This document shows positions 4,670 through 26,869 of a DNA stretch of 32,000 nt, piece by piece. Source of the DNA: Pirellula staleyi DSM 6068 (lineage in GTDB: Bacteria; Planctomycetota; Planctomycetia; Pirellulales; Pirellulaceae); assembly GCA_000025185.1 (NCBI GenBank), contig CP001848.1, positions 2,250,001-2,282,000 on the forward strand. Direction: 5' to 3'. The notes beneath the pieces are model-generated. The model saw only the letters and a program-made list of their open reading frames with translations, did no database searches and was not told where the DNA came from. Position numbers and translations under genes: made by a program. Every line of letters begins with the position of its first letter. Positions within the stretch are counted from its first letter, which is position 1.

Positions 4670-4768
4670 GACCAAACCTCGTCTTGCTTCCTACACGTAT
4701 CGGTTTCACGCGATGTCGCATCATGCGACGACCGCTGCTGGTTCATCGTTGTCGAGGATTACTGCGAT

Positions 4769-13700: not shown

Positions 13701-14587
13701 TGCTGTGCATCGATCGAAAGCGAGGACTCGGGAGCTTGAAACGACACCGTGCGATTGCCCGATGTCGTTGCGTAAGCGAGTTGCTCGAGTCCCTCACTGG
13801 TGGCGCTGTTGGCAGCCGAGTTCGTACCGTAGTAATTCACCACGCTGGCATCGACAAACACAAACGAGCGCGAATCGCTCGTGAGTCGATCGACGATCGG
13901 TTCGAAGTCATCGAGTTCTAGCTGCGCATTAATCGAGGACGATTCACGCGGTCCCGTTACTGAAATCGAAGTGCTGGTGTCGGAGAAAGTGTAAGCAATG
14001 CTGCTGGTGTGCTGCCCGATCAGCTCGAGCGTATCGATGCCACTTCCGCCTTGGAGTGAAATTTCTTTGGCGAGATTTCCCGCGCCACTGAAGGTCTCCG
14101 CGAGGTCGATCGACACGAAGTCGTTGCCCGCGCCTGTGTTGATCTGAATTTGATCGCCGCTGAAGCTGTCGAGCGAGAGAATCAGCCGATTCGTGCCATC
14201 GCCGATCGCACCTTCAATCGTGGTGCTAAAAATTTGCGTGGGATCGTATAGCTCGATCGTTCCTTGAGCAGCATCGATTCGAACTTGCAGCTGATTGTCG
14301 TGTGCGCCCGATGAGTTGTCCTCGACGACAAGGTTGCCACTGGCGTCGATCGAAGCATAGAGGGACGACGGGGTAGTGCTCGAGGTGGTCGAACTCGTTG
14401 GTGTGCTGCTGGGAGTCGTTTGGTTTTGTGGAGCCAGCGCACCGGCACCAGCTGCGTTGAGTACATAGCGGGGCTCGAGCGTGCCAACTTCCAGCTGGGC
14501 GAGGAGGGCTTCGCGAGCGGTATGCGAGCTAGCGCGACGCTTCCGTCGAGGCAGCAGCCTCGAGAACCAGTCGAGAATTGGTCGCAT
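4769..14587 (-). CDS. Giant (3272 aa) secreted or surface beta-helical repeat protein with an N-terminal LEPR-XLL-type motif and a filamentous-haemagglutinin-like GNGGFIETSG...WLLDP element
   Basis: A single uninterrupted ORF in the track. Composition is Gly/Thr/Ser/Asp/Asn/Ile-rich and Cys-free, typical of beta-helix adhesins. N-terminus reads ...LEVGTLEPRYVLNAAG. The segment GDGGKVIVWADD...ARGGAEGGNGGFIETSGKRYLAIGG...GTWLLDPYNVTI covers residues ~470-540, with GNGGFIETSG at 13064-13093. A C-terminal module, LAPGMGEGQAGQIIVVGNATFGPGTEFVFDI...DYDQLQVFGSLDITGNILSLEGG, lies at 5735-6118. Confidence 0.9.
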   Translation of the reverse strand: MRPILDWFSRLLPRRKRRASSHTAREALLAQLEVGTLEPRYVLNAAGAGALAPQNQTTPSSTPTSSTTSSTTPSSLYASIDASGNLVVEDNSSGAHDNQLQVRIDAAQGTIELYDPTQIFSTTIEGAIGDGTNRLILSLDSFSGDQIQINTGAGNDFVSIDLAETFSGAGNLAKEISLQGGSGIDTLELIGQHTSSIAYTFSDTSTSISVTGPRESSSINAQLELDDFEPIVDRLTSDSRSFVFVDASVVNYYGTNSAANSATSEGLEQLAYATTSGNRTVSFQAPESSLSIDAQQEGATLRAADFQLRLSDRLELLASRGELHLDGSMQLETGALDASAERLMLSGNLSASDAPITLSATESLTATASSSITATAGNVTLDAQEGELLFSGTIDVSDKSDAGVGGKLKLLGNEVSLLSGALIDATGTRGGGEVLVGGDYLGSNPIVRNANLTYMDADAAINASAIQSGDGGKVIVWADDTAIVAGSHNIAARGGAEGGNGGFIETSGKRYLAIGGAASASAVNGLAGTWLLDPYNVTINNTGTAILTAGVLTATANNTQINVSTITAALAAGTNVTINTGTGGTQDGNITLDAPLTVNMNGNNATLTLNAANDILIDDAITASNGQLTVVLNANASGGVNDDGNATAGNVTVAAAIATNGGDFRTTGVQFSSTATISTAGGDIELTHTGTITIGANINTGAGTSTISSTTGNIAFSGNSSLTTASASLTATAGAITSGTATNDINTATANGNVVLASGAAIGTSGNRIAVSIGTGTISATTTGAGTAGDINISSAASLRLGAFSTAGGSAQAIRITTTGASSHITLGTSSSGNDNWTVVSGGNFTATGTHSITAGTISINAGGSILSNGVGVDFVTSGTGDALVLTAALGVGTSVDAIEATVASPGLISMVADTQGINFLYLGGALNFSRFGTVKAAAANQVIEISTENGNIVVDDTTPFTDLVGSDTLILRAQGGSSDISFTGTEVLQAKIVELYAAGDVTSDGAGTDIEVSTGDLVVPRLAVIAESIGASTTPLSADLNGGTVSLSASVGGIYFDADGGDFSTDQITTLSAAGTGVTIQLGTSAGNFTIDSLTGIHNNTANDNWIVRAGGTGDLTFANASPLNVVTFSGDAAGDVLRTGNGPSVEATSVLTAITLEGTNLGQVGNAIQFSAPSGKLSFSATGDVYYEQATGDLDLDQFILLSSSGIGSVISLEAVAGNVDLSSLGGFVATSDDNFTIVASGDVNFGSVTLFAASVTVNAGGSILSGTAATDINTAGFDGNISLTGALGIGAGPADSIIVNAGNGVVDLTTSDLTGDISLQSDGVLNLGTISTVAGEQTVNISVPTSSLSFTSAVTTDDNWVVYASGDIQFVGANHTLTVNTLVMTSDSNITTDGQGTDIAVVGTTGGVLILEANNVGADTLPIAISRLSGTQVSFTALDGDIFLNFVDSSLDFSDLQLSTGLPANRTVSIAAAGQITIDDLTNIDVSTNDDNWLLETTGANADILFAAATPLTVLSLDATATGNIYTTATTVSIDATSFNQAITLTGASVGGNPDAGGLALRLDIEAGAFISVESGSDIGISIVDGDFNVSQLTLFSISAAGSTIYLGIENGILTFDDTTGFVDTTDDNWVIEGSSNLLFTGPTLEAASVKITVDGLIEQSFGLDIDTSAFDGDITLITQLGVGVNAPVRIAAGNGIVRATAATSGGINLASLTNFNVGLMTTNAGAVDNINLRTFGGGDDLRFVESSSTNDNWLLSSQGNIELVDDTFLDGNIFFLFATDDVVSGTHDYDLKSTSALQEIEIIAGSIGSTTNLLVLDQAFTGLYAQATVGDLAIEIVAGDITLSTLDLFSAVGVGVNVYLKTRSGDITIDVDSNTSDIFDDNLTFIAEGAGSDIILDIANPLVAASVNLQAGGKLVTSAANPPIDIDTSGTNGDITIFAASGIGEPGDPLKINPGTGVVSLSTSETDGDIFVRSDTQFNLGQISTGADIQTIEVGTLNGDLIISDPSGSNDDWRLIANGNIIFQGDGSLSANTAFLFANNTIYSDTAGIDIDTSASNGAIFISSAYVGTVNQRLEVNAGTGTYEIDSVFDVYLGFYGGDLFTSQFVGLDTNALPVTIDLLVENGDLIVDSAAGFTGTSTSGNWVLTTNTGFDVVFDNTTLQVGSLVVDSGGSILGGSNPGTDIRTTAGGIDLTAAGDIGESGNSLNIDLPNNFTPITAAAGTNVYLESADSLLVDTITTDVGTGTISVATLNPGSTITINSDINSDDNWILNSASDVIFNPAGTLRAVSVSIVADGNIVGNNGAVDIEVLTAGNNLYLEAQNIGTFGTPIDLILGADTQLEVIATGSSVALNMQSGDFHTSQFATLVLQGGTGNILLTTLDGSLYVDSTAGFDSSTNNDFFLLNAIATDADIVFENNTTLLAAQALLNANRNIVSGAALYDVDTSASQGSITLQAGGMIGAQANEFAVNTGSGLTAGLLFVSTSSVGGDIYLESGDTLNIGTLTTNGAESQFIELGGGDVILSNIFTTNDDWELFGSNIIFNNAAMITARSVQISASNAVTSGTGVVDIDVSAPGGSLIVSAITGTADNPLEVNLGDSDLSLYSTGGDSYVNFHGGDLRGSQILALSVTSEDATIQLTALNGDILLDNLDGFQPELFDMNAHLILRAQSQVQGVMSNIDLDGGTLRAGNVTLEAMGSISGNLGGGVDIQTAPDGIVRLVAIGEVDQNYDPVQGGEIGSALNPMILATSGVEAISTGNQYYSASPTLRLLALDAGNSTIFLQSGTFYLDGFTDSTVLSPGVTFGGDGIVKGDLIAPGIVTLAPGMGEGQAGQIIVVGNATFGPGTEFVFDINSPYQIPGRDYDQLQVFGSLDITGNILSLEGGEALQQTISDITLIDMMDPNSQVIGQFVLGEGSIDIDGKVSIGNFSSNIFYTGGSGNDVVLSNISLVPPIQNTNYKAPSLRFIAFSRDFVPIADNDVQPPQLSPVEPPIIEADVDGVAVRKVQVSLLTPIDDEGNFLEEVVLTLDVEWLKNLSALFRRLPDDRYRLYLILEGGEKRRVMDVVIRDGRPFEPEENRDLEPASKFVAPPPMNEGAVPTMEQDSPTELPPTKATSTSPQDVNEPAAEPLPTGPTLQGPTLNAPTTTPLRDATGPAVSPLERSSLDDYSGSSTQYAYVDDSHAYASDFVASETVRESSLGQSDVFAAADANEIAATPIRFVPATAGIAMVLASAGSDGDWQKAVDGAVIAHSRERLSRRGRLQAKRRPAER
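6119..12091 (-). repeat. Array of about 15 degenerate protein-level modules of ~124-137 aa, each opening with an x-D-D-N-W-like motif, inside the giant gene
   Basis: I counted module starts at residues 833 (GNDNW), 966 (GSDTL variant), 1103 (ANDNW), 1234 (SDDNF), 1359, 1492, 1629 (TDDNW/NDDNW), 1753 (TNDNW), 1883 (FDDNL), 2013 (SNDDW), 2143 (TSGNW), 2269 (SDDNW), 2400 (TNNDF), 2532 (TNDDW) and ~2661 (DMNAH variant). Spacings are 133, 137, 131, 125, 133, 137, 124, 130, 130, 130, 126, 131, 132 and ~129 aa. The residue count closes to 3272 when counted from both ends. Confidence 0.75.
14450..14587 (-). other. LEPR-XLL-type N-terminal region of the giant protein
   Basis: MRPILDWFSRLLPRRKRRASSHTAREALLAQLEVGTLEPRYVLNAAG. 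LEPR plus YVL lies at 14453-14479. By eye it matches the motif that names the NCBIfam 'LEPR-XLL domain', which is found at the N-termini of very large repetitive proteins. There is a basic cluster but no long hydrophobic h-region. Confidence 0.6.
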
Positions 14588-15178
14588 AGCAGGAGGCTCC
14601 CATCCGTAAAAGCAGATCGATAGCGGTGACGGTCACCTGCAGGGGTGAGCCGCGGCCACGCGACATGCGTCAGAGTTTGTGCATTTCAACCCTGCATTAT
14701 CGGGGTGGAGTGGTCGCAGTGTCAAACTCATCCGGAGATGCCGGTCGAGCCGAAAAATCCGCTGCCAAATCCATCTCGCGATAACGTCGCAACGTGGTCG
14801 CCCAACCGTGTTCGCTCGGCTGGCCAGTTCCTTCTAAAAATCCATTCAACCTGGCCGAGATTTTGTCGCCAAAAACTGTCTGTTTTGCCTAGCCTTCCAT
14901 TCTCTATCGGCCTTTGATCGCGGCCTCCCGCAACAAGTTTGACGGTGGCGGGAAGTGGGTATGTCGCGGTGTTCCGGCTGTAACGGTCGTGCCGGTCGAG
15001 TGAGGATTGGCTGCTGTGCCGGTCAATCCGGATAGTCTCGGAAGACTTGAGAGACCGGTTAAAGGAGGTCGACAACACTCGTGCGACACCGTTAAACCCT
15101 TCGATCCTCCCAACTGGAAGTGCCTGCATGCCCACTGCCGAATCGCGCCTTCCAAGAAGCTCCGAATGTGCCGCTAAG
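14588..15178. promoter_or_regulatory. Long divergent intergenic region, presumed to hold promoters and leaders for the giant gene (-) and the proline-rich protein gene (+)
   Basis: About 590 nt lie between the two divergent starts. The only ORFs here look spurious. GGGAG sits 14 nt upstream of the giant-gene ATG. No promoter motifs could be called with confidence. Confidence 0.3.
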
Positions 15179-17320
15179 ATGCGCCGTAAGTCGTTTCTGC
15201 AAAATGGCTTGTGCAGTGCAGCAGCAGCTCTGTTGATGGCGGCTCCGTGGCTGGGATGCATGCGAAGCGATAGCCTCGTCGAACACCCGGGAGGAACCCG
15301 TTTGCCGTCCGAGGTGGCGGCGGCGGTCGATCCTTCAAGCGGTGCACCGCAGCTGGCGATGGGGGAAAAACCGGCAGCTCGCGATGCCTCCGGTAAGCTG
15401 GTGCTGCCTAGTGCGCAGTTCACCCCTCTGGCGACTACCACCAACGCGATTGCCCGTGATTCGTCGGTTCCAGAGGCCGTTTCCCCCGCAGCACCGTGGC
15501 AAGCTAGCGAAGTCGACACTTTGGCAAACGCGCAGCCTCCGCGCCCGTCGATCATCCCCCCTCCACCACTTCCGGCCCCATTTGCCAATAGCTGGGTCGG
15601 AACGCCAGTTGCAACTCAGCCTGCTCCTGAACTTGCGCCGCAGACCCATCCCTCGATGGTTTCGACTGCGGCACCAACTCGTCCAGAGCCTGCGCCAGGC
15701 ACCGACTTAGTTTCCTGGCCTGTCGTCGACCGGCTTCCCGAGGTCACCAACGAGCAACCAGCTGAAGAACCTCTGCCAACGATTCGTATTCGCCCGGCAA
15801 CACCGACGCCCAGCGTCGTGCGAGCCGCGCCCCAGCCAAACATTCCGCAGCCGACGATTTCGCGCCTGCCAGCGACGTTTGAAGTTTTGCCTCCGGTTGA
15901 CGAACCGAATCAGCCGCTGCCTGTTATCGCTTTAGCGCCGCGCATGCCAGTTCCGCGCGACGTAGCGAGCGATCGCCCGGCAGCAGTCACTCCGAAGATT
16001 GAGCGACTTGCGCCTCTCGTGGAAGAGCCAGCACGCGCTCCCTTGCCAGCGGTGCCGCGTCAAAACATTGTGCGTCTTCCCGAGCCTGTAGTTCCAGCCG
16101 CTGCTGTGGAGTCCGACCAGCCGCGCGTCCTGAATGCCTATCGTCCGCCAGAGTTCGAAGGACGTAACCAGCGTGTCATCACACCCGAAAAAGTCGAGAT
16201 GATCGATGCGCCGCAAATCAACCTTTCTGCAGGGCCAGCGGTAGCGAGCACGAATGTTCCCGGAAGCTTGCCTCCGATTGTCCATGCTTCTCCACAACCC
16301 GAGCAAAAGTCGTCACGTCGATCAGCAATCGCCGCCGCCTCCCATACGCGGCTGACTCCGAGGAGCGCAACGCCGCAGGCTGCAGCTTTAGGGTCGATGA
16401 CCCCTGAAGTTCGCTCGGTACTGGTTCGTCCTCAAACGATCAAAACCGATTCGGGCGAAGTGATGCTGACGAGCGAAATGTCGCCACGGTCTGTGAGCGT
16501 GCTCGCTTCACGTGTCAGAATCGCGCCACCACCTGCAGGTGAAGAGCGAGTGCTCGAGATTCATCCCGAAGCACCTTCGGAGCGTGCTCCCGACTACGTA
16601 ACCCCTCAAAATTCCATTCCACCAGAACATCCCGCCGCATCGCCAGAAGCAGAAACCTACGACCCCGAAGGGTATGTGGTGCAAGAGGAACTTTTGCCCC
16701 CTCCAACCTCGGGAACGCCGCAGCCACCACCACGAATTACGATCCAGCCACCAGCCTCGAACAATTCCTCGACCGAAAGCGAACTGCTTCCTCCTGCGTC
16801 AGAGCCAGGCTTGCTCGATCCCGATCAAACAACGCAGGCCGATCCGCCCCAGCGTTTCAAACCGCTATCGTCCCTCACTACGAATATCGCGGTTCCGACC
16901 TATCGCACCGTCACGGGGGACGCGCTGCCGATGCCAGCAGACTATGCCACCGAGTTTTTTGCCAACCAAGGTCCCGATTGGCGATCGGAACGTGCTTCGC
17001 GCTATGGCGACTACGTTGTGAATCCTCAAGGACTCGAGTTCTGCTATCAGCCACTCTACTACGAAGAAGTAAACGTCGAGCGCTACGGCCTCACATTCGG
17101 AGTCGCCCAGCCTGTCGTTTCAGCAGCCCAGTTTTACGGCCGCACCGCTGTGCTCCCATTCATGATGGTCACACATCCACCACGCAAGTGTGCCTGCCAT
17201 CCTCACTGGACATTGCCTGGCTATCGCAGCTGCTGGGAAGTGCCCGACTACATGCCACGTCCCGACGCCGCCGCCGTGGAAGCTGCTTTCGTACTGGGGC
17301 TGATTCTGCTCATTCCGTAA
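15179..17320 (+). CDS. Proline-rich envelope protein with a signal-peptide or lipoprotein-like N-terminus and a conserved Cys-containing C-terminal domain ending in a hydrophobic tail
   Basis: The track ORF begins at a TTG (15047). I prefer the ATG at 15179 because it yields MRRKSFLQNGLCSAAAALLMAAPWLGC: a basic n-region, an h-region, then Cys, although the lipobox is imperfect. The central ~550 aa are rich in Pro, Ala, Glu and Val. The last 121 aa (16955-17317) read FFANQGPDW...FCYQPLYYEEVNVERYGLTFGVAQPVVSAAQFYGRTAVLPFMM...CACHPHWTLPGYRSCWEVPDY...AFVLGLILLIP. From memory this resembles a planctomycete-restricted hypothetical family with a (H/Y)xPLYFE(D/E)xNLERYG motif. I cannot name the family. 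Confidence 0.75.
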   Translation: MRRKSFLQNGLCSAAAALLMAAPWLGCMRSDSLVEHPGGTRLPSEVAAAVDPSSGAPQLAMGEKPAARDASGKLVLPSAQFTPLATTTNAIARDSSVPEAVSPAAPWQASEVDTLANAQPPRPSIIPPPPLPAPFANSWVGTPVATQPAPELAPQTHPSMVSTAAPTRPEPAPGTDLVSWPVVDRLPEVTNEQPAEEPLPTIRIRPATPTPSVVRAAPQPNIPQPTISRLPATFEVLPPVDEPNQPLPVIALAPRMPVPRDVASDRPAAVTPKIERLAPLVEEPARAPLPAVPRQNIVRLPEPVVPAAAVESDQPRVLNAYRPPEFEGRNQRVITPEKVEMIDAPQINLSAGPAVASTNVPGSLPPIVHASPQPEQKSSRRSAIAAASHTRLTPRSATPQAAALGSMTPEVRSVLVRPQTIKTDSGEVMLTSEMSPRSVSVLASRVRIAPPPAGEERVLEIHPEAPSERAPDYVTPQNSIPPEHPAASPEAETYDPEGYVVQEELLPPPTSGTPQPPPRITIQPPASNNSSTESELLPPASEPGLLDPDQTTQADPPQRFKPLSSLTTNIAVPTYRTVTGDALPMPADYATEFFANQGPDWRSERASRYGDYVVNPQGLEFCYQPLYYEEVNVERYGLTFGVAQPVVSAAQFYGRTAVLPFMMVTHPPRKCACHPHWTLPGYRSCWEVPDYMPRPDAAAVEAAFVLGLILLIP

Positions 17321-17332
17321 GGCATGGTCTCG

Positions 17333-17370
17333 AAAAAAACTGCGTAATTCTCGGTGAATACGCAGTATTT
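17333..17370. terminator. Intrinsic terminator hairpin between convergent genes; it reads best for the minus-strand operon
   Basis: Stem ACTGCGTA (17339-17346) pairs with TACGCAGT (17359-17366) around a 12-nt loop. A7 (17333-17339) precedes it on the plus strand, which gives a U7 tract after the hairpin on the minus strand. The plus-strand side has only ATTT. It lies 13 nt after the 17320 stop and 14 nt after the 17380 gene end. Confidence 0.6.
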
Positions 17371-17379
17371 GAAGCTAGT

Positions 17380-19590
17380 CTAAAGCCCGCGGCTGAGCTG
17401 AAACGTCTTGCTAAACAGACGCCAAAGCCGTCGCGCGATCGTTTCGGAATCAACGCGAATTCGAGCTTTCCCCGTCGCGTAGGGGAGCACACGTAGCGAG
17501 CTCTGCAGCTCGATTCGGACTTGATACTTCGCTTCGCTCGACACTTCGTCGGACTCGAGCAGCGAGTTAGTCATCGCTGATGGTGTCGCACTCTCCGACG
17601 CTTTGGCGATATCGATAATCGTCCCCTCGACGGCGATCGATTCTTCTTGAAACACGATTACCGCCACCGACTGTCCAATGCGCACTTGCTCCAGATCCGA
17701 TTCAGCCAGGACAGCAGTCGCTTCGAGCTTCGTGGGGTCCCCGACTTCGCAAAGCAACGTCCCTTGGTCCAAATAGCTGCCGATGTTCTCGGGGTCGAGT
17801 GGTGTACCGTACCAGGTGGTTAAGGCCAGCTTCGTGACCTCTCGTTTCGCGCGTCCCGGAGCGAGCACGACACCTTCGCGAGGTGAGCGAATCGTGAGGC
17901 GATTGACTAGGTCGCGCAGTTGCTCAGTTCGCTCGCGCATGTCCTGCAGCACTACCGTTTCGGCAGGAATGATGGTCTCCACCGAGTCATCAATCCCGCG
18001 CATCGTCTGCAATGCGTCGAGCTTCTTCTCTTGTGCCCTGGTCTCTGATTCGATCCGTGCAAGATCGAGCGTTAGCGCCGAGTTGTCGAGCTTGGCCAAG
18101 ACGTCACCTTGGCCAATAGTGTCGCCAGCCTGCGCCACCGATCGAAGTTGCCCTGCGCTCGTGACATAGATTGGTGTGGCACCTTGAGGAATCACCAGCA
18201 GTGGCGCATCGACGCGCGATGGGAGCGGCACCATCACGATGGCTCCCACGGCGCCGCAGGCGAAGATCGTCGAGAAAGCGAATCGTAAAAAACTAAATTG
18301 ACGTTGCATGATCGACTCGCGCCATTGCCGAAAAAAGGTCTGAACGACAGGGAGCAGCGTGGCACCCAGTGCCGCGAAGAGCAACAGCCCCACCATCGCC
18401 TCGATCTTCCACGCTCGTCCAAGTGCCGAGAGTATCCAGTATGCCGAGACGAGGACAAAAATGCGATAAATCCCCGAGAATAACGCGTAAAATGCCAGCG
18501 GGGCATCTCGCTCGGTACTCGCCAGAAGAGCTGGAGGAGGCGTAAGTCCAAAGACCTGTTGGGCGAAGATGGTTGCAAAAGCACGCCGCGATCGCTGCTC
18601 GAGATTCGGGATTTCGAGCCAGTCGGAAAGGAGGTAGTAGCCGTCGTAGCGGAGCAAGGGATTGGCATTCACGACCAAAGTTCCGATGGAGCAAATCACC
18701 ATCGCCTGGAGTGATAGAGAGTTAATCACCCCCGGCAGACTGGCCCACCACAGCAAACCAAACAGCGCTGCCAGCACGAGCTCCACATACATCCCCGCTG
18801 CTGCCACAGCCATGCGCTTCCAGCGACTCGCCAGGAGCCAGCTGTCCGACACGTTGCAGTAAAGGCAAGGGGTCAACAGCAATAGTTGCACACCCATCTC
18901 CGGAACGCGTGCGCCCATGCGCATGCAGACAAACGCATGCGCAAGTTCGTGCAAGGTTTTCACGAAGATCAGCACAACCGGCAGGAGCAGCAGATGCTGC
19001 GGCGCTAAATTGGTCGCGGAACTTTCGAGCCTTGCAATGATCGTTGGAAGCTGTGTTAACGCAAGGATGAACACCACGGCGACCAGCGTCAGCATGATCG
19101 CCGCGCATAGCGGCGAGAAGAACCAACTCACTAGCGGCAGCCAGGGGCGCAGCCAAGTCTCGGCATCGATCCCACGAAGCCGGGGCGACAGGAGCGCACT
19201 GGCAAGGCGCGAGATAGGCCACGCCTCATGCTTTTGGCGCTTGGTGGCCAGCACTGCTCCCTGACCAGGGAGTGTTCCCAAGACGAGTCCTTGTTTGTGC
19301 AATTGTTCGAGAAATGCCGTCAGCTGTTTAACCGACAGGATGCTCGGCGCAAATCGATGCGCAAATGCAGCCCGCAGATCGTCGATACTGATTTCGCCAT
19401 CCAGATGCTCGAAGACAAACTGTTCATGCCCCCGAAAATAGAAATAACGCAGCGCGATGGGATCGTGCACGATCAGCCACGACTCACCACCAAACCATTG
19501 TTGACGGCGCACTAAATCGTGGCGCGCGACCAATGGAATCGGTCGCTCGGTGGTGCTGGTGATCGGTTTGGAAGTTTGCGGCTTAGCCAC
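17380..19590 (-). CDS. Tri-domain fusion: PqqD/RRE-like N-terminal domain, polytopic M50 (site-2-protease family) zinc metalloprotease, and C-terminal HlyD-type periplasmic adaptor
   Basis: GTG start lies 2 nt after the upstream stop. Residues ~35-105 (19276-19488) read WLIVHDPIALRYFYFRGHEQFVFEHLDGEISIDDLRAAFAHRF...VKQLTAFLEQLHKQGLV, a PqqD-like pattern. HELAH lies at 18937-18951 in a TM segment (...VLIFVKTLHELAHAFVCMRMG). The second M50 motif is NANPLLRYDGYYLLSD (residues 308-323). There are about 7-8 hydrophobic helices between residues 150 and 455. Residues ~455-736 carry the lipoyl-like, coiled-coil (ARIESETRAQEKKLDALQ) and beta-barrel pattern of membrane fusion proteins. Confidence 0.88.
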   Translation of the reverse strand: MAKPQTSKPITSTTERPIPLVARHDLVRRQQWFGGESWLIVHDPIALRYFYFRGHEQFVFEHLDGEISIDDLRAAFAHRFAPSILSVKQLTAFLEQLHKQGLVLGTLPGQGAVLATKRQKHEAWPISRLASALLSPRLRGIDAETWLRPWLPLVSWFFSPLCAAIMLTLVAVVFILALTQLPTIIARLESSATNLAPQHLLLLPVVLIFVKTLHELAHAFVCMRMGARVPEMGVQLLLLTPCLYCNVSDSWLLASRWKRMAVAAAGMYVELVLAALFGLLWWASLPGVINSLSLQAMVICSIGTLVVNANPLLRYDGYYLLSDWLEIPNLEQRSRRAFATIFAQQVFGLTPPPALLASTERDAPLAFYALFSGIYRIFVLVSAYWILSALGRAWKIEAMVGLLLFAALGATLLPVVQTFFRQWRESIMQRQFSFLRFAFSTIFACGAVGAIVMVPLPSRVDAPLLVIPQGATPIYVTSAGQLRSVAQAGDTIGQGDVLAKLDNSALTLDLARIESETRAQEKKLDALQTMRGIDDSVETIIPAETVVLQDMRERTEQLRDLVNRLTIRSPREGVVLAPGRAKREVTKLALTTWYGTPLDPENIGSYLDQGTLLCEVGDPTKLEATAVLAESDLEQVRIGQSVAVIVFQEESIAVEGTIIDIAKASESATPSAMTNSLLESDEVSSEAKYQVRIELQSSLRVLPYATGKARIRVDSETIARRLWRLFSKTFQLSRGL

Positions 19591-19592
19591 GA

Positions 19593-20528
19593 TCAGGGAA
19601 CTCGAATCGTCATCTGCCCACGATAACCGGGGCGAAGCATTTGGTCGGCATTGTCGATCTCAGCAATCACGCGGACTTCATTGCTCACGGGATTCACTTC
19701 GGGACTAACGAAGACCAAAACACCTTGAAATTGCCGCTTCGGAAGCTCTGTGGCCAGAATGTCAAATTGCACGGGAGTGCCAGCTTTCAAAGCTACGGCA
19801 GCTTTCGCGGGAATGAATCCTTCACAGCGGAGCTTGTCGAGTTGCACGAGTCGAATCAGCTTCTTGCCAGGCTCGATCCACTCCCCTTCGCGACCAGTAA
19901 TGTCGGCAACCACGCCGCTGAAGGGAGCAATCGCCCGTCGCCGGTCGATGGTCCGTTTCGCGAGATCGACCTCTGCTTGTTTGAGCTTGATGTTGAGCAC
20001 GGCCACCGATTGTTCGTGCTTTGCTTTTTCCATGGCGAGTCGCGCCTCATCAGCCGCCAATTGCAATCGATCGAGTTCTTGCTGCGAGATTACTTTTTGG
20101 ATCGCAGCAACACTGGTCTGGCCACGTTTCAGCTCCTCTTCGGCTACGCGGAGCGTCTTCTCTGCCAGACGATAGGCCACATCGGTGTCGGCTGTTCGTG
20201 TCGCGATTTCGAGTTCAATTTCGGCTCGGGTGAGCATCAGCACCACTTCGCGATCGTCGAGGGTCGCCAGGATATCTCCCTTCTCGACTTTCATCCCCTC
20301 CTTCACATTCACGGCCGAAAGGATTCCCGCTTCAGCAGCGGGAACATCCACCTCGCGTACCAGACGCAGTAACCCCGAGACGACCACCGGTTCTGCGGCG
20401 CGTGCAGAGGGGGACTCGAAGGAGAGCGAGAGGAGGCCGATGCCAAGGAATACGAGAAGAGGGGACGCTACTTTTTGTTTCGACATGAGATGTCTCTTCC
20501 TGCGAATTGCTCGGCCAACCTGGGGCAT
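19593..20528 (-). CDS. HlyD-family membrane fusion protein (periplasmic adaptor subunit)
   Basis: N-terminal anchor or signal KQKVASPLLVFLGIGLLSLSF. Lipoyl-type segments GILSAVNVKEGMKVEKGDILATLDD and APFSGVVADI. Long coiled coil (EIELEIATR...LKQAEVDLAKR). An alternative ATG at 20486 (MSKQK...) is preceded by AGGAAGAG and may be the true start. Confidence 0.9.
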   Translation of the reverse strand: MPQVGRAIRRKRHLMSKQKVASPLLVFLGIGLLSLSFESPSARAAEPVVVSGLLRLVREVDVPAAEAGILSAVNVKEGMKVEKGDILATLDDREVVLMLTRAEIELEIATRTADTDVAYRLAEKTLRVAEEELKRGQTSVAAIQKVISQQELDRLQLAADEARLAMEKAKHEQSVAVLNIKLKQAEVDLAKRTIDRRRAIAPFSGVVADITGREGEWIEPGKKLIRLVQLDKLRCEGFIPAKAAVALKAGTPVQFDILATELPKRQFQGVLVFVSPEVNPVSNEVRVIAEIDNADQMLRPGYRGQMTIRVP

Positions 20529-20625
20529 CGAATCGTTGCGTGAGCAAGCTCGTCACTCGTGCGTGTCGTGAGTTATCCTGGCGGAAATTGACGGAATCGC
20601 CGCTCCAAAACAAGGTGGTCGCGCT

Positions 20626-22605
20626 CTAGTAGACACACCACGACCGAACAAGCGTAATGAGCTCGTGGAACCAAACATACCCGATGGGGTAGGTGCCACA
20701 CTCGATTTTAGCGCGCACTGTTGCGCCGGGGCGTAGCTCTGGGAGCTTTCCGCTGATCGAGCCAGCGGTGATATGCACAATGCTTTGATTTTGTTCGTCG
20801 CGCGACGTTGCGGGGGCGATTGCTTCGACCACAGCCCGGTGCACCTGGGTGATATCGGTGCCGAGCACAAACGAGACTGCGACCGGTTGTTTGGAATGGG
20901 CCTGAGCGCGAAGCACATACCCCGCGCGACGATCGGGAAGGTCGAGTTCGAGTTGCCAGGGAGATGTGAGGTCGGCGATCGTCATCAGCAGTTCACCGCG
21001 CTTCACGGGACGATCGGCCAGCTGACGTTCGAGGTCGAACGTAACGATCGAGCCGCTGATGGGACTGTTGATTTTGAGTTGCGCGACCTCGGCTTTCAGG
21101 ATCTCCTCTTCGGCCTCGAGACCGATACTAATTTCCTTTAGCTGCTCGATTCTCGCGGCGAGTTCGCTTTTTGAACCAGGGCCCGAGGCAGGGAGATCAT
21201 CCCCTAGTAGTTGTGCCTGCGCCGAGTCGAGGTCTTCTTTCGTTTTTCGTCGTTTACCACCCACTTCTGACAAGCGGATCGCTAGCGTGGGGCTATCGAG
21301 TTCTGCTAACGGCTCCCCTTTACGCACCGACATCCCTTCGCGGCCTGCGAGTCGAATCACCACGCCATCAGCTGGCGCGAAGACATGCTGACGGACCTGC
21401 GGAACAAGCTCGCCACTCGCTTCGACTGTCAGCTCGGCTGGTATCAGCAACAGCGCGGCTGTGATGGCACCCAGGACGATTCCCAGCAAGGCCAATTGTG
21501 CGAGACGTTGTCGCGCATGATCACGCACCTTGCGACGGAGTCGTCCGAGCCATTTGAAGGGGAGCGATTCGTACTCGACCGCTCCTTCAACCGCACCAGC
21601 AACCGTTGCGGCGATGAGCGCTGCTCGTCGGCGATCGTCGATGGATGGCAGGCGCGAGAACCATTCGCAGGCCAAAATTCCGATCGGCCTTGAGGATTCA
21701 TCGTCGGTCGTAAGCGGGAGCATGGCGAGCGAACGAGCATGGGTTTCGTCGACGAGCGCTTCAGCCGCTTCTTCGACCTGCGGCGCGACATCGTCGTTTT
21801 TGTTGTCGCCGTACCAAAGTGTGTCTCCCGACCGGAGCACAAGCCCAGCCAGCTGTTCGAGATGTCTTAATGATTGGCTACGACGGTCGAACGAAGCGGC
21901 GCCGCTGATGGCGATCACTTCAGTGCGATTTCCTCGCGCTAGTAGCAGCGTCATCCGGTCGCAGTGAGCAAGTGCGGGAGCATCGCCGACAATGGTGCTC
22001 GCGACATTCTCGAGAATCAGCGATTCGTGCACACGCCTCGAAAGATCGAGGAGCTGTGCGGCATCGAGTTCTCGCGTCTTTAGCAAACGAAGTTGGCGGT
22101 TCTTTTCGTAGTCCTCGGCGATTTCGCAACCGGTGGTGACGAGCCGGAAATAGCCATCGACCAGTGCTGGCCGCGACTCCGGACGCTGCAAGATTTCGAT
22201 CACTCCGAGCGGTTCGTCGAGTACCACCAGCGGCGCGACGATCAGCAGCCACGGTGTATCGTTCACTTGATTTCGCGTGCTGCTTCCAGGTGGAACGAGC
22301 TGCGGTTCGTGGGAACGCAGGACGTCGACGATGAGCGCGTCGTGCTGGGCTCGCAGCTGCGAGTCGCCAGCGAGTGTTTGTTCGAGTTGCATCTCGAACT
22401 GGCACAGGAGTTGGCCTTCACGCACGGTCCAGACAGCACCACCTACAGCGGCCAGCACACCGATTAACTGTGACAGGAGCTTAGGGTAGAAGGTTTCAGG
22501 TGCAACATCCTCGCGCGCGAGTTGCGTGAGTCCATCGAGCACTTCTTCGATCTCGAGCCAAGCGGCGTCGGAAGGCTCGTGCGGATCGAGGTTGCCGGTC
22601 GTCAT
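20626..22605 (-). CDS. Two cytoplasmic GAF-like domains, one TM helix and a HlyD-type periplasmic adaptor domain
   Basis: The track ORF starts at a TTG (22698). I prefer the ATG at 22605 (MTTGNLDPHEPSD...). GAF-like regions span track residues ~45-200 and ~210-375 (21574-22566), e.g. ...GAVWTVREGQLLCQFE...PLVVLDEPLGVIEILQ and ...CDRMTLLLARGNRTEVIAISG...LAMLPLTTDDESSRPIGILACEW. TM helix LAQLALLGIVLGAITAALLLIP at 21439-21504. The adaptor region includes DGVVIRLAGREGMSVRKGEPLAELD, a short coiled coil and INSPISGSIV. Confidence 0.82.
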   Translation of the reverse strand: MTTGNLDPHEPSDAAWLEIEEVLDGLTQLAREDVAPETFYPKLLSQLIGVLAAVGGAVWTVREGQLLCQFEMQLEQTLAGDSQLRAQHDALIVDVLRSHEPQLVPPGSSTRNQVNDTPWLLIVAPLVVLDEPLGVIEILQRPESRPALVDGYFRLVTTGCEIAEDYEKNRQLRLLKTRELDAAQLLDLSRRVHESLILENVASTIVGDAPALAHCDRMTLLLARGNRTEVIAISGAASFDRRSQSLRHLEQLAGLVLRSGDTLWYGDNKNDDVAPQVEEAAEALVDETHARSLAMLPLTTDDESSRPIGILACEWFSRLPSIDDRRRAALIAATVAGAVEGAVEYESLPFKWLGRLRRKVRDHARQRLAQLALLGIVLGAITAALLLIPAELTVEASGELVPQVRQHVFAPADGVVIRLAGREGMSVRKGEPLAELDSPTLAIRLSEVGGKRRKTKEDLDSAQAQLLGDDLPASGPGSKSELAARIEQLKEISIGLEAEEEILKAEVAQLKINSPISGSIVTFDLERQLADRPVKRGELLMTIADLTSPWQLELDLPDRRAGYVLRAQAHSKQPVAVSFVLGTDITQVHRAVVEAIAPATSRDEQNQSIVHITAGSISGKLPELRPGATVRAKIECGTYPIGYVWFHELITLVRSWCVY

Positions 22606-22737
22606 GGTTAGCGGCAATTTCGATCGAGGTGATGTGCGGGAAGAATCACGGGCCACGAGGAGCCAAGACTGTGCTCGTGGCAAGCTCAATCGTAGCAAGA
22701 ATCGCTCGAATGGAGCAAGGAATAGATCGAAAGCAAA

Positions 22738-25700
22738 CTACGGTGCTGGCGGCAGGTACTGAAACGCCGGTGCTGTCTGCTGCATCGCTGGGGCTGGCAT
22801 CGGAGGTCCTGAGACCCCCGAAGTTCCTGGGGCAAACCAAGTTTGTTCGATCAGTCGCGACGAAGGGCCTTGCTGCATCGACGTGGGAATCGGCTGAGCC
22901 GTCGGTCCCTGCATGCTCGACATGTTCAGCGGTGCTGCTGAGCTCGGACGTCGCAAGCCTTCGAGCGTCGGCTGACGAGGTGCGGCGGGTGGCGCCGCTG
23001 GCTGCTGATACTGGGGTTGCTGATACTGCGGCTGTACCGGTGCATACTGCGTCGGGGGATTCTGTTGCTGGTATTGTGGCTGCGCTGGAACGTTGTAGTT
23101 GGGCTGCATCGAAGGCAGCGGCAACGAGGGCTCGTTGGTCGTAAATCCAAACTGCGGCTGAACGGTGGCCTGAGGTGGTGCAGCCGTTTGTGGCTGGACA
23201 GGGGGAGCCGTGGTGAAAGGACGAACAGCCCCTTGTGGCAACTGCTGCTGCATCGACGGTTGATACTGGGGTTGCTGATACTGTTCGTAGCCGCCCGGCG
23301 GAAGCGAATTGAACTGCGATTGGTTCGACGGTGGAGCCAGCGGCAACGACGAATTGATCGCGGGAGTAGACGGCGTCGCAGGAGCTGGCGGCAGCAGATT
23401 CATCGAGGCGGCCGAACTTGCGCGACGTTGTCCTTCGAGTTGCGGAACGCGAGGCTGTGCGACCTGTGGCCGTGGACCTTGCGATGGCATCGTTTCGTAT
23501 GGAACATTGTTTGGCGAATTGCTCGAGGCGCTGAACTGCGGAGCGACTGCTGCGTTCGATGGTCGACGTCGCGACGAAACACTCGCTGGAGGCTGCTGTC
23601 CAGTCGGCATAGCTGCGGCACTCGTAGACCGCGAACCTGGGAGTGGCAACGAGCTTTCGCTTTCGAGCTGCTGTGGCATAACAGGTTGCTGCACCACCGG
23701 CTGTTGGAGGTTTGGTTGCTGGAAGCTCGGTTGCTGTACGCGTGGCTGCTGCGGCGCTGCGATGGTCGGCGGACTCACAGCAGCAGGAGCATTGCGAGGA
23801 GGCATCAGGTTCATCGATGCGGCACCGCTCGGACGACGGACGTTCCCCATAGCAGGCTGCCTTGCGACACCACCATCGGGCGAAGCAAAGGTAGGTGGAA
23901 CATGGTTGTTGAGCGAGTTCTCATAGGCACGATCTCCCGCTGGAATCGAATCTGCGGGCAGCTCCAGCGAAGGTCCAACCGGCTCGGGCCGGCGAGCTGG
24001 TGTGGGAGTCGTGGCAACTGGTCGCTGCGGTGCTGCGGGTGCAAGCTTCATCGATGCGGCGCCACTCGGACGACGGACATTCCCGATCGCAGGTGCACGA
24101 CCAGGAAGCGATGGCGCTGTGCCTGGCGTGGCCTGCGGATATTCCGTGAACTCAGGATTGTTTTCAGGGAAGTTGAACTCGGGTTCACCAGCTGCACTGG
24201 GGCGTGGCGAACGAGCTGGCGTGGGCGATCCGGCGGTGTTGTTGCTGGCGGCACGTGGCGATGGTGGAAGCAAATTCATCACCGCTGCACCACTTGGGCG
24301 GCGGATGCTTCCTGCATTAGCCGTCCGTGGCTGCTCGGTCATAGTTGGTGCCGATGCTGGCGTTTTGGCAGGCGTAGGCTCGGCATACAGCTTCGAGGGA
24401 TCGGCATAGACAGGATTGCCTACCATGTCCGGACCTTCGGGATCGGTGTTCACAATGTTCGGCAACGTTCCGCCGGGTAGTGGTAGACTCTCTTGCGGTG
24501 TCATCACTGTCTGCGGAACATACTCAGGCTCGGCCGGAACGATCGTCTCTTCGGCGACATCAGCCGGTGGGGTCGGTGGACCGAACATCGGTGGCGCTGC
24601 CAAATCTTGCGGCGATGCTGCATCGTTGGTTGGCGATGGCTCTAGCTCGGCAAAATCGGGCGACGGAGTGGGAATCGATGGATCGCTGGGGGCTGTTTCT
24701 GTCGGTTGTGGCGGACGCATTTCGGTAGGCGACAAATCGGCAGGTGGCAAGCTTTCCGCCATATGCACGTGGCTGTACTCGAGCAGCGTTCCCTTCTCGT
24801 AGTGGATGTTCTTGATTGCAATCGTATGTTCAACCAAAGCGCGATAGTACTGAATGTCGGCATCGGCCAAGCGACGTTCGGCATCCAGCAACTGATCGAG
24901 ATTGACGGGCAGGTCTTTCGAGAGCTTGTCGCGCAGGATATCAACTTGGCGCTGGGCAGCAGAGCGACGATTGAAGCTGGTGTTCATTACTTGATACGAG
25001 CGAGCCAGATCGGCCATCGCATTGCTCAAATCGTGAACCACCTGACGTTCCTGTTCGCAAAGCACGGCTTTCTCGCGAGCCAGCAACAGCTGAGCATTTC
25101 GGACGGCAGCATAGCCACGTCGGAAACCAATTGGCATGGTCAGTTCGGCCCCCACTTGCCATTCGGCGAAATCGCCAATGAACAAGTTGCGAATCGAACT
25201 GTTGCCAAAGTAGCCCTGTGGATCTTGCGGATCGAACAGCAGGTCTTCATCACCCAGCAGTCCATGCCCCAGACCACGCCAGCGATAGCGGGTGGTGGCA
25301 TCGAGTCGTGGTAGCAAAAAGTTGCGCGACGCAATCAGCTCGAGCTCGCGACGTTTGATCGCTAGTCGCTGACGATGCAGTTCTGGACGACGACAAATGG
25401 CATCATTGGTGACGCCACTCCAGTCGAACGAAATGCGAGCGAGCGTGGGCTCGTCACCAGGGCGAATCATGCGACCATCGGTGATCGGCAAACCGCAGGC
25501 CAGACGCAAACGACGTTCGCAAACCAGCACACCACCAATGCCGCGGAAACTTCCACCAGCCGTGCCGTTGTTCGTGGTGGTGCTATCTTGCAAACGGCCA
25601 CTCAAGGCATTTTGTACATCTTCTTCAAAACGATAATACTGCTCGCGAGCTTGCGCTTCACGTTCGGCTGTTCCACCCGGCTGACCACCTTGATACATAA

Positions 25701-26595
25701 CATTGATGCGTTGCCACGTCTCGAGAGCCGTGTTGCGAGCAGTGATCTTGGCGTCGAGATCGCGATAGGCAAAGTACAAATCCCAGTAGGCGTTTTCGAC
25801 GTTGCTCACGAGGTCGCGAAGACCAATTTCGAAGTCGGTCACACTGATATCGGTGTTCACGCGGGCGATAACCACACCGCTATAAACACCTGGAACCGAG
25901 TTGGGTCCAGCAATGCGATTGAAGCGTGTACCAGCACCTTGCAGCAGCGGATGACGAGCTTCGACTTCCAGCAGCGAGTCCCAGGTGCTCGGAAAGCGGT
26001 TGAACGAGGCGTTATTGAAGTCGTAGGTGGTGGTGCCACGCAAAATCAGCTGCGTACCACTGGTGGTGACTTTCGATAGCTGCGACTGCGCGACGAGCAA
26101 ATCTTGCTGGAAGAACCGAGTACCACCGGACGCCACGAAGTTGTTCACCATCCGGTCGTTCTTTTCGGCCGATACGCTAGCCCCGATCGTGGCATCAAAC
26201 GCTGCCAAAGCCGCTTCCATACCGATGCGAGGATCGGAAGAAACAACCGCTGGCCCAAGAATCGTGCGTGCGTTTTCCGGTGAGCGAATGACCGTTCCAC
26301 CAAGATCGCGAAGGATGGCCGACTGTGTGACGGCGAGCTGAACAGCCTCGTCGAGCGACATGTTCCACCACTCTTGAGGCACCGCGTTCTCGTTGATCGT
26401 GCGGGGGGCTTCGCTGGTGGCATACTGCATGCTCGGATTGATCTCGACTTCGGGATAGTCGTACCGGGCAGCGATCTCTTTATAATGTGCTAGCTCAGGG
26501 TCATTCTTACGGTCCGGCCCGACCAAATTGCAGCCGACACTCATCGCGACGAGCGCGATAATGGCAGCGACAGGGGCATAGACAGTACGAAACAT
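22738..26595 (-). CDS. TolC/OMF-family outer-membrane channel (residues ~75-610) with a possible lipoprotein signal and a 675-aa Pro/Gln/Ala-rich C-terminal extension
   Basis: N-terminus MFRTVYAPVAAIIALVAMSVGC. OEP-type halves: MSLDEAVQLAVTQSAILRDLGG...VENAYWDLYFAYRDLDAKITARNTALETWQRI and PELHRQRLAIKRRELELIASRNFLLPRLDATTRYRWRG...LDQLLDAERRLADADIQYYRALVEHTIAIKNIHYEKGTLLE. The remainder (22741-24765) is low-complexity. Confidence 0.9.
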   Translation of the reverse strand: MFRTVYAPVAAIIALVAMSVGCNLVGPDRKNDPELAHYKEIAARYDYPEVEINPSMQYATSEAPRTINENAVPQEWWNMSLDEAVQLAVTQSAILRDLGGTVIRSPENARTILGPAVVSSDPRIGMEAALAAFDATIGASVSAEKNDRMVNNFVASGGTRFFQQDLLVAQSQLSKVTTSGTQLILRGTTTYDFNNASFNRFPSTWDSLLEVEARHPLLQGAGTRFNRIAGPNSVPGVYSGVVIARVNTDISVTDFEIGLRDLVSNVENAYWDLYFAYRDLDAKITARNTALETWQRINVMYQGGQPGGTAEREAQAREQYYRFEEDVQNALSGRLQDSTTTNNGTAGGSFRGIGGVLVCERRLRLACGLPITDGRMIRPGDEPTLARISFDWSGVTNDAICRRPELHRQRLAIKRRELELIASRNFLLPRLDATTRYRWRGLGHGLLGDEDLLFDPQDPQGYFGNSSIRNLFIGDFAEWQVGAELTMPIGFRRGYAAVRNAQLLLAREKAVLCEQERQVVHDLSNAMADLARSYQVMNTSFNRRSAAQRQVDILRDKLSKDLPVNLDQLLDAERRLADADIQYYRALVEHTIAIKNIHYEKGTLLEYSHVHMAESLPPADLSPTEMRPPQPTETAPSDPSIPTPSPDFAELEPSPTNDAASPQDLAAPPMFGPPTPPADVAEETIVPAEPEYVPQTVMTPQESLPLPGGTLPNIVNTDPEGPDMVGNPVYADPSKLYAEPTPAKTPASAPTMTEQPRTANAGSIRRPSGAAVMNLLPPSPRAASNNTAGSPTPARSPRPSAAGEPEFNFPENNPEFTEYPQATPGTAPSLPGRAPAIGNVRRPSGAASMKLAPAAPQRPVATTPTPARRPEPVGPSLELPADSIPAGDRAYENSLNNHVPPTFASPDGGVARQPAMGNVRRPSGAASMNLMPPRNAPAAVSPPTIAAPQQPRVQQPSFQQPNLQQPVVQQPVMPQQLESESSLPLPGSRSTSAAAMPTGQQPPASVSSRRRPSNAAVAPQFSASSNSPNNVPYETMPSQGPRPQVAQPRVPQLEGQRRASSAASMNLLPPAPATPSTPAINSSLPLAPPSNQSQFNSLPPGGYEQYQQPQYQPSMQQQLPQGAVRPFTTAPPVQPQTAAPPQATVQPQFGFTTNEPSLPLPSMQPNYNVPAQPQYQQQNPPTQYAPVQPQYQQPQYQQPAAPPAAPRQPTLEGLRRPSSAAPLNMSSMQGPTAQPIPTSMQQGPSSRLIEQTWFAPGTSGVSGPPMPAPAMQQTAPAFQYLPPAP
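22921..24303 (-). repeat. Six dispersed copies of an RRPSGAASMNLLPP-type short linear motif in the OMF tail
   Basis: RRPSGAAVMNLLPP at 24262-24303. RRPSGAASMKLAP at 24037-24075. RRPSGAASMNLMPP at 23797-23838. RRPSNAAV at 23545-23568. RRASSAASMNLLPP at 23386-23427. RRPSSAAPLNM at 22921-22953. Copies 2 and 3 are also near-identical at DNA level; on the plus strand they read catcgatgcggcgccactcggacgacg and catcgatgcggcaccgctcggacgacg. SLPLP(G/S) recurs four times in register with them. Confidence 0.8.
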
Positions 26596-26869
26596 GTTGG
26601 TGTGGTAGTTTCTGCTTGGGGGGCGCGCAGGAACGTGACTGAGCGGAACTCGTCGTCCCCTTGATCGGCATGCAGAAGTGAAGATCGCGCGTCAAAATCG
26701 CGCTAATTGGCAAAAATCATGCAATCCGCAGGGTTGGTTTAATCGGCACTGTCTGCTCATCTTGTCTATTTTGGTGTTGTTGGCTGTCTAAATTATGCAG
26801 GTTGCCTAGACCGCTCTCTGCATCGTTGCATGTGCAAGTCTGTAAGGTTTTTTCGCAAGGAATTTTGAC
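26596..26869. promoter_or_regulatory. Divergent intergenic region, visibly more AT-rich, presumed to hold promoters for the OMF operon (-) and the TPR-methyltransferase gene (+)
   Basis: 274 nt lie between divergent starts. AT-rich stretches such as ttgtctattttggtgttgttggctgtctaaattatgc are present. There are no credible ORFs and no confidently identifiable -35/-10 elements. Confidence 0.35.

Follow-up and report, generated by a model that had tools for sequence, protein, structure and literature searches.

A four-gene locus of Pirellula staleyi DSM 6068 as a candidate envelope-spanning part of a leader-processing protein export module

A 32-kb stretch of DNA from Pirellula staleyi DSM 6068 (CP001848.1, positions 2,250,001-2,282,000; 57.8% GC), referred to below as the window, contains on its minus strand (26595 to 17380) a four-gene operon for an outer-membrane factor (OMF), an adaptor with GAF domains, a plain adaptor, and a fusion of an M50 intramembrane metalloprotease with a third adaptor. 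The locus is, on balance, probably the envelope-spanning part of a widespread protein export module that processes leaders and resembles a type I secretion system (T1SS); a truncated secondary SecA (SecA_DEAD) would act on it in trans, and proteins of the LEPR-XLL type are its candidate cargo. Tentatively, the giant LEPR-XLL-type protein encoded next to the operon is put forward as such a cargo.

Re-reading of the open reading frames (ORFs) gave four consecutive, co-directional genes, with intergenic gaps of 39, 97 and 2 nt when the longest ORFs were used (Table 1). Their coordinates matched exactly those of an earlier interpretation made from the letters alone (the sequence-only reading), which had described a self-contained operon of a TolC-like OMF and three HlyD-type adaptors that lacks an energiser.

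The fourth protein matched Pfam Peptidase_M50 (31.1 bits, cut-off 27.2) and HlyD_3 (35.3 bits). An AlphaFold2 (AF2) model built from a 70-sequence alignment (mean predicted local distance difference test score, pLDDT, 87.6; predicted template-modelling score, pTM, 0.76) divided it into a beta3-alpha3 domain (residues 20-105), a helical membrane core (143-452) and a membrane-fusion protein (MFP) domain (455-730). The core showed the features that define M50/site-2 proteases by sequence, namely HExxH in a transmembrane (TM) helix and the Asp ligand of NxxPxxxxDG: HELAH was found at residues 214-218 and the second metal-ligand motif NPLLRYDGYY at residues 310-319, and H214, E215, H218, N310, P311 and D316 were invariant in 70 homologues. 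Foldseek placed the MFP domain nearest ZneB, MacA and EmrA (~1e-12).

In the AF2 model, residues 20-105 had the secondary structure beta-beta-beta-alpha-alpha-alpha with pLDDT >90. The window protein gave no Pfam PqqD match in this domain at E<=0.01; PqqD (PF05402) matched 6 of 18 aligned family members, with a best E of 1.5e-6, and a profile of the domain matched PDB 3g2b weakly (E 0.44). The M50 and adaptor architecture proposed in the sequence-only reading holds in the light of Pfam, NCBIfam and the AF2 model; the PqqD-like domain is a putative assignment, the PqqD profile being matched by relatives and not by the window protein itself.

The best curated family for residues 114-423 was daptide_HExxH (NF041824), with E 1.3e-40 and 139.8 bits, which is below the 300-bit cut-off of the family and makes the fusion a relative of the daptide peptidase MpaP, not a member. 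The M50 core also matched YydH/LiaK (E 8e-12). MpaP is an intramembrane leader peptidase of daptides that depends on a RiPP (a peptide made by the ribosome and modified after translation) recognition element (RRE); daptide leaders, which bear a short N-terminal motif, are cleaved off by a site-2 protease fused to an RRE (bioRxiv 10.1101/2023.03.08.531785). Because the daptide metalloprotease is the best curated family for the protease core, the fourth protein is read as a predicted MpaP-like leader peptidase to which a periplasmic adaptor has been added. In this respect, the earlier idea that a protease recognising a leader is coupled to a periplasmic duct is sound.

The other three proteins also agreed with their first descriptions. 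The TolC-like nature of the OMF was confirmed by two Pfam OEP repeats (75.8 bits), as in the OMFs of tripartite exporters, while its score against TIGR01844 TolC (22.4 bits) was under the family cut-off. Its N-terminus carried a signal with a lipobox-like SVGC. The TolC-like part covered only residues 1 to ~620; residues 621-1285 (665 aa; window 22738-24732), overlooked in the sequence-only reading, formed a Pro/Ala/Gln/Ser-rich tail with 21.5% Pro. Six copies of GN[VI]RRPSGAA[SV]MNL[LM]PP were found in this tail, and three in that of the orthologue in locus L001 of the survey described below. Tandem Repeats Finder detected no DNA repeats in the tail, the motif being repeated at the protein level only. 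The RRxS core of the motif is similar to sites of basophilic kinases, and a large gene for a Ser/Thr kinase is found close by.

The GAF-adaptor matched Pfam GAF at residues 229-368 (28.2 bits, cut-off 22.4), HlyD_3 (37.6 bits) and HlyD_D23. Its first GAF module was weak in Pfam (GAF_3, E 0.024) and GAF-like in the AF2 model (pLDDT 84.8), where a pair of successive GAF-like alpha/beta modules is followed by one TM helix and an MFP domain with an alpha-hairpin; the TM scan placed the helix at residues 402-420. Pfam and the model thus support the tandem GAF, TM and adaptor arrangement read from the letters. The plain adaptor, likewise borne out, scored above the cut-off of RND_mfp (121.9 bits, cut-off 94.9) and matched HlyD_D23 (77.5 bits), with an N-terminal anchor at residues 20-38 in the TM scan. 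Three proteins of the operon therefore carry the MFP domain expected of adaptors in tripartite exporters. From hydropathy, the TM scan and the AF2 models, the putative RRE and the GAF domains are predicted to be cytoplasmic and the three MFP domains periplasmic.

The M50-adaptor family is large: a word-indexed search gave 2180 matches, and an exhaustive search gave 3465 cluster representatives (50% identity) at E<=1e-30. Gene neighbourhoods were surveyed in 80 loci from species-representative genomes, all Planctomycetota, and in five further M50-adaptor loci (L001, L002, L166-L168), about 85 in total; ORFs were called with a crude caller and then clustered. GAF-adaptor, plain adaptor and M50-adaptor (the triad) formed a conserved core on one strand, which was recovered in 42 of the 63 loci with enough upstream flank, and most misses were antisense-ORF artefacts of the caller. 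An OMF gene was adjacent in 11 of 49 loci and was usually divergent; it was co-directional with the triad in the window and L001 (2 of the 11 OMF-bearing survey loci), and in L168. Tabulation of orthologous loci, the check named in the sequence-only reading, upheld the order of the triad and the lack of a conserved ATP-binding cassette (ABC), resistance-nodulation-division (RND) or major facilitator superfamily (MFS) transporter, and did not uphold a constant OMF.

In one group of loci (the window, L001, L006, L024, L030, L051, L052, L056, L068 and L168), most or all of a longer block was retained, consisting of the OMF gene, the triad, a convergent gene termed c6 and a gene for a giant LEPR-type protein. 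Within this group, the M50-adaptors shared only ~34-37% identity and the outer flanks were unrelated. Judged from this synteny, the functional neighbourhood seems to be larger than the four genes, with c6 and the LEPR-type giant as further members.

The window contained no ABC-like ORF, no ORF of at least 200 aa with a Walker A motif, and no ORF with at least six TM segments other than the M50 fusion. Near the triad, no ABC, RND or MFS transporter was conserved in the ~85 loci, and no RND was found; the reported lack of a pump is therefore true of the window and, as the lack of a conserved one, of its relatives. ABC-type ATPases occurred in a handful of loci and were never adjacent to the triad. 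Polytopic neighbours across the loci were amino-acid permeases, a Na/H exchanger, SecY, two distant MFS proteins and, in one clade, ABC-2 permeases. The ABC-2 permease and ATPase genes of that clade (clusters c8 and c13) recurred 5-8 kb upstream and were judged unlinked because they lie on the opposite strand, have other genes between them and the triad, and are absent elsewhere.

A candidate energy source was found in relatives. By comparative genomics in several phyla, Kamneva, Poudel & Ward 2015 (PMC4452313) described GAF-HlyD, M50-HlyD, HlyD and sometimes OEP proteins as the conserved neighbourhood of a secondary SecA_DEAD, proposed SecA_DEAD as the ATPase and suggested the M50 protein as a possible inner-membrane pore. 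This truncated SecA, which has SecA_DEAD, SecA_PP_bind and P-loop_SecA domains and no SecA_SW, was found here as a large Pirellulales family of ~640-aa proteins that stands alone in many places. In L093, the genes for SecA_DEAD, GAF-MFP, MFP, M50-MFP and a DUF3467 protein followed each other on one strand, and L166 showed the same order, with SecA_DEAD first and DUF3467 last. In L084, L105, L106, L107 and L160, SecA_DEAD adjoined the M50-adaptor in partial versions of this arrangement. The M50-MFP of L093 shared 53-56% identity with its counterparts in L046 and L054, two loci without SecA, and so is closer to them than those two are to the window protein. Versions with and without a linked SecA are thus interleaved in one family, which suggests that the ATPase gene has been relocated and is not missing, and the energy is probably provided by a SecA_DEAD encoded elsewhere and acting in trans. 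The preprotein-binding domain of SecA_DEAD would point to polypeptide rather than small-molecule cargo.

The small DUF3467 protein was a repeated neighbour of the triad (L166:12492-12890; L093:17599-18078; eight loci of cluster c9, e.g. L018:6448-6807) and the last gene of the SecA_DEAD-containing operons; it was absent from the window. Cluster 5 of Kamneva et al., labelled "conserved hypothetical", may be its counterpart, and a search for solved relatives of DUF3467 gave nothing useful. A gene for a BBP7 (PF07585) beta-barrel porin adjoined SecA_DEAD divergently in L166 (2783-4159, minus strand) and L083 (374-1780, minus strand), and in loci with no adjoining OEP gene this porin might take the place of the outer-membrane partner. 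Divergent SecA DEAD domains are also contained in most giant proteins of Omnitrophota, another group of the Planctomycetes-Verrucomicrobia-Chlamydiae (PVC) assemblage, a loosely related case (bioRxiv 10.1101/2023.11.21.568195).

The relationship of the protease core to MpaP raises the alternative that the locus is a RiPP or bacteriocin exporter, in which the RRE-M50 protein trims small peptides encoded elsewhere, the adaptors and OMF export them, and the giant protein is unrelated. The two curated families nearest the M50 core are both RiPP leader peptidases, PqqD/RRE domains are a hallmark of RiPP pathways, and HlyD-type adaptors are common in RiPP loci (PMC8939145). However, no precursor-like small ORF or modification enzyme was found in the window, where the gaps of the operon measure only 2-97 nt and the small ORFs of the two intergenic regions beside it look random; the conserved neighbour clusters of the ~85 loci, built from ORFs of at least 90 aa, included none either. 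The partner ATPase found elsewhere is, moreover, a SecA-type polypeptide motor with a preprotein-binding domain and not a peptide ABC exporter. A RiPP exporter is therefore considered unlikely.

The model of the sequence-only reading, a possibly ligand-gated conduit without an energiser in which intramembrane proteolysis itself releases the product to the adaptor/TolC duct, fits the absence of any ATPase or proton-driven pump from the window and most related loci, and the GAF domains could act as the gate. The co-operonic SecA_DEAD of L093 and L166, and of the published loci, speaks against it, as does the interleaving of SecA-linked and SecA-less versions; that the unit is self-contained does not follow from the window alone, and this part of the earlier claim is unlikely to stand. 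We know of no precedent in Sec or T1SS biology for the transfer of a polypeptide across the inner membrane without energy input. The conduit model is thus improbable.

The association with LEPR-type proteins provided a candidate substrate. The giant gene of the window begins 2.8 kb downstream of the operon. Its product carried a basic cluster, RRKRR, followed by LEVGTLEPRYVLNAAG, with the motif at residues 36-53 (nt 14429-14482). No hydrophobic segment or signal peptide was found in its N-terminal 100 aa, and no Pfam domain, RTX included, was detected in the protein. Against NF012209 (LEPR-XLL), it scored 15.0 bits (E 0.014), a borderline value below the 17-bit cut-off. Its leader aligned with those of 16 other triad neighbours and showed their layout, which consists of a short amphipathic start, a basic cluster, LE-x-R-x-x-L ~35-45 residues in, and then small residues.

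Such leaders were picked by a regular expression with a basic-residue filter, which misses variants, for example those of leishmanolysin-like proteins of cluster c27 (LETLERRDCPAG). A hidden Markov model built from 17 LEPR leaders had been tried as a detector and was set aside, since at E<0.01 it recovered its own seeds alone. In 15 of 77 loci, LEPR-type ORFs of at least 400 aa started no more than 5 kb downstream of the triad, and in 2 their start lay in the remaining flanks; with 273 kb in the near compartment and 540 kb elsewhere, ~1.0 locus was expected in the former. The Poisson P was 4e-13, or 1e-6 when nine independent M50-adaptor clusters (<45% identity) were counted, and both values are optimistic because related loci share ancestry. 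The LEPR genes lay on the operon strand in 14 of 16 cases and fell into at least eight unrelated protein clusters that have only the leader of ~50 aa in common. L168 was an independent further case of a LEPR giant beside the triad, and in L094 a stand-alone SecA_DEAD gene adjoined the gene of a 1481-aa LEPR protein.

The c27 proteins (L034, L042 and L045; e.g. L042:13199-14716, minus strand) are ~505 aa long and combine Calx-beta and leishmanolysin (M8) domains with the LEPR-like variant RRRNHVYHLETLERRDCPAG. Their genes adjoin the triad and, in L034 and L045, also a LEPR giant; the L042 contig ends before any giant gene. Since these proteins carry the motif, it marks diverse, presumably extracellular proteins beyond the adhesin-like giants.

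Giant adhesin-like genes beside the system, together with a cytoplasmic domain of the nucleotide-sensor type and a dedicated protease, are also what a Lap-like retention and release system would show; here, the giant adhesin would be exported by other means and a GAF-controlled M50 protease would release or activate it by cutting the LEPR region at its N-terminus. A LEPR-XLL giant of Vibrio carries C-terminal RTX domains typical of ABC-type T1SS cargo (PMC10868602), and ABC-type export would apply there. However, neither the window nor its relatives contain an ABC T1SS, and the window giant has no signal peptide and no detectable Pfam domain such as RTX. A LapG-type di-alanine site after the LEPR motif was also considered and rejected, since NAAG occurred in the window protein and L001 only and was not conserved. 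A Lap-like role has, in view of these results, little probability.

That the adaptors serve an unlinked drug or metal efflux pump, or that the fusion is a signalling protease of the site-2 (S2P) type, with M50 and GAF as regulatory add-ons, is very unlikely: the MFP domains are structurally nearest ZneB, MacA, EmrA and AcrA and S2P proteases usually act in regulated intramembrane proteolysis, but no pump is conserved near the ~85 triads, and three distinct adaptors in fixed order with an RRE are foreign to efflux pumps and to RseP/SpoIVFB-type signalling.

In the favoured reading as a leader-processing export module, three different MFPs would assemble under the TolC-like OMF, possibly as a mixed hexamer. 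The cytoplasmic RRE would dock a short N-terminal leader of the substrate protein, the M50 site would cut this leader off, and the polypeptide would leave through the adaptor/OMF duct. Energy would be given in trans by the SecA_DEAD motor, with its two nucleotide-binding domains and preprotein-binding domain and without wing or scaffold, and the GAF domains may supply ligand control or a docking surface. It is possible, though doubtful at present, that the LEPR-XLL region, with its basic cluster and LE-x-R-x-x-L motif in roughly the first 50 residues of proteins devoid of a signal peptide, is the leader, for both targeting and processing, of an unrecognised one-step secretion pathway made up of RRE-M50-adaptor, GAF-adaptor, adaptor, outer-membrane channel and truncated SecA; the window would then hold both the machine (17380-26595) and its cargo (4769-14587).

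Several points weigh against this reading, besides the sub-threshold family scores of the protease core and the giant, the shared ancestry behind the enrichment values and the Vibrio RTX protein with its ABC-type route. SecA_DEAD is absent from the 32-kb window, in which tblastn with SecA and the SecA_DEAD family found nothing, and from 83 of the ~85 related loci. No component is an obvious inner-membrane protein channel. A LEPR gene was adjacent in only 13 of the 45 loci (~29%) with at least 5 kb of downstream flank, and the SecA-containing operons of L093 and L166 have no LEPR neighbour. In the searchable literature, no experimental work on the module and no function for LEPR-XLL were found.

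The coordinates of the operon and of the features around it are given in Table 1. The terminator-like hairpin between the operon and the convergent gene, already noted in the sequence-only reading, is real: a perfect stem of 8 bp, in which ACTGCGTA (17366-17359) pairs with TACGCAGT (17346-17339), encloses a loop of 12 nt and is followed by T7 at 17339-17333. It had been overlooked by an automated scan because its loop exceeds 8 nt. The intergenic region at the other end is likewise richer in AT than the window, as stated before, and its operon strand showed no sigma-70-like consensus in the promoter scan. The promoter match ~110 nt upstream of the giant gene suggests that this gene is a separate transcription unit.

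Table 1. Features of the operon and its surroundings in the window (window coordinates).
Feature	Position	Strand	Basis
Repetitive LEPR-XLL-type protein, 3272 aa, candidate cargo	4769..14587	-	NF012209, leader alignment, synteny
Sigma-70-like promoter match, TTGACA-18-GATAAT (11/12)	14696..14725	-	Consensus match only
Pro-rich lipoprotein-like protein c6, convergent	15047..17320	+	Synteny with operon in 9 loci
Intrinsic-terminator-like hairpin and T7	17333..17366	-	Read directly from sequence
RRE/PqqD-like, M50 and MFP fusion, 736 aa	17380..19590	-	Pfam, NCBIfam, AF2
Plain membrane-fusion adaptor, 311 aa	19593..20528	-	TIGR01730 RND_mfp, HlyD_D23
GAF-adaptor, 690 aa (TTG start) or 660 aa (ATG at 22608)	20626..22698	-	Pfam GAF and HlyD, AF2
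Outer-membrane factor (OMF), 1285 aa	22738..26595	-	Pfam OEP
Divergent intergenic region 5' of the OMF gene, presumed promoter region (49.6% GC)	26596..26869	.	

In each of the nine loci that have it, the c6 gene separates the LEPR giant from the M50-adaptor gene and runs on the opposite strand. Towards its C-terminus, the protein had a conserved domain of ~140 aa (C-x-x-PLYFEE-x-N-x-ERYG ... YTLGHYRPG) and then a hydrophobic tail, and it gave no match in Pfam or NCBIfam. Translation probably begins at M45 (15179), with a lipobox LGC after it. An ORF that lies directly downstream of the giant gene and runs off the left edge (2-4675, minus strand) encodes a Ser/Thr kinase that is PknB-like (E 5e-63), measures at least 1558 aa and carries beta-propeller-like repeats; in L056, the LEPR protein is followed by a homologue (40% identity over 1342 aa).

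On the other side, a gene for a TPR-repeat methyltransferase dependent on S-adenosylmethionine (26870-28228, plus strand) diverges from the operon and occurs in L001 too, and a second class-I methyltransferase gene lies further right (30286-31389, minus strand); neither showed an evident tie to the operon. Between them, a 592-aa protein (28376-30154, plus strand) joins T6SS_VipA (TssB) and the N-terminal sheath domain of VipB (TssC) and ends in an Ala/Pro-rich tail; no further genes of a type VI secretion system were seen in the window. In L001 (1-995, minus strand), the VipA-VipB fusion gene is divergent and lies near the OMF gene, beyond the TPR-methyltransferase gene, as in the window, and in L168 (1469-3355, minus strand) it directly adjoins the OMF gene. 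The fusions of the window and L168 shared 62% identity, though their M50-adaptors shared only 37%.

Many very large extracellular proteins of Planctomycetota carry no signal peptide that can be recognised. If true, the proposed module would explain how giant surface proteins of this kind are exported in Planctomycetota and other bacteria, and it would be a new trans-envelope secretion design drawn from T1SS adaptors and OMF, a RiPP leader peptidase and a Sec motor. The LEPR-XLL association offers a concrete candidate substrate, and its confirmation would give the NCBIfam LEPR-XLL domain a function.

Comparison with the module of PMC4452313 showed the same three protein types, Peptidase_M50 with HlyD, GAF with HlyD/biotin-lipoyl and HlyD/biotin-lipoyl, with OEP in some loci. 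The phylum is also the same, and in two loci of the window protein's own family, L093 and L166, the published arrangement is complete. The window differs in having no SecA_DEAD gene in the neighbourhood and in its OMF, which is co-directional, a rare arrangement, and bears the low-complexity tail of 665 aa. The composition, for which the sequence-only reading knew of no experimentally characterised system, is thus already in the literature, from comparative genomics only; the narrower point stands, as no such characterised system was found. The RRE domain, the MpaP relationship and the LEPR-XLL link are not reported in that paper. The RRE/MpaP assignment, the LEPR-XLL association and the finding that an unlinked SecA is the rule in a Pirellulales survey appear to be new.

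In MpaP, as predicted for the fourth protein, an N-terminal RRE/PqqD-like domain is fused to an HExxH intramembrane protease; however, MpaP lacks an adaptor domain at its C-terminus and works with neither OMF nor adaptor partners, and daptide precursors and modification enzymes are missing from the window and from the conserved neighbour clusters. With MacAB-TolC, EmrAB-TolC and RND pumps, the locus has in common the adaptor fold (lipoyl, beta-barrel and alpha-hairpin) and the OMF partner; here, in contrast, there is no ABC, MFS or RND pump, and the adaptors bear large cytoplasmic or polytopic extensions.

As in T1SS, including those for giant adhesins (HlyBD-TolC; LapBCE with LapA/LapD/LapG), an OMF and MFPs span the periplasm, and as in the adhesin systems a giant repetitive surface protein is encoded next to them; the locus also recalls the Lap system in having a protease of its own and a sensor domain in the cytoplasm. 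The defining ABC transporter of T1SS and tripartite pumps is absent from the window, however, three adaptors take the place of one, and the candidate signal is N-terminal, whereas that of T1SS is C-terminal. The protease is an integral-membrane M50 enzyme fused to an adaptor, whereas the Lap protease is a periplasmic Cys protease. In the peptidase-containing ABC transporters (PCATs, e.g. ComA, LagD and PCAT1, with HlyD-type partners), a leader peptidase is likewise physically joined to the export machine and couples cleavage with export. A PCAT unites its C39 cysteine peptidase with an ABC ATPase in a single chain, whereas here an M50 metalloprotease sits on an adaptor and the ATPase, if any, would be a separate SecA-like protein. 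By analogy, the locus would resemble most closely a T1SS with a PCAT-like coupling of leader cleavage and export.

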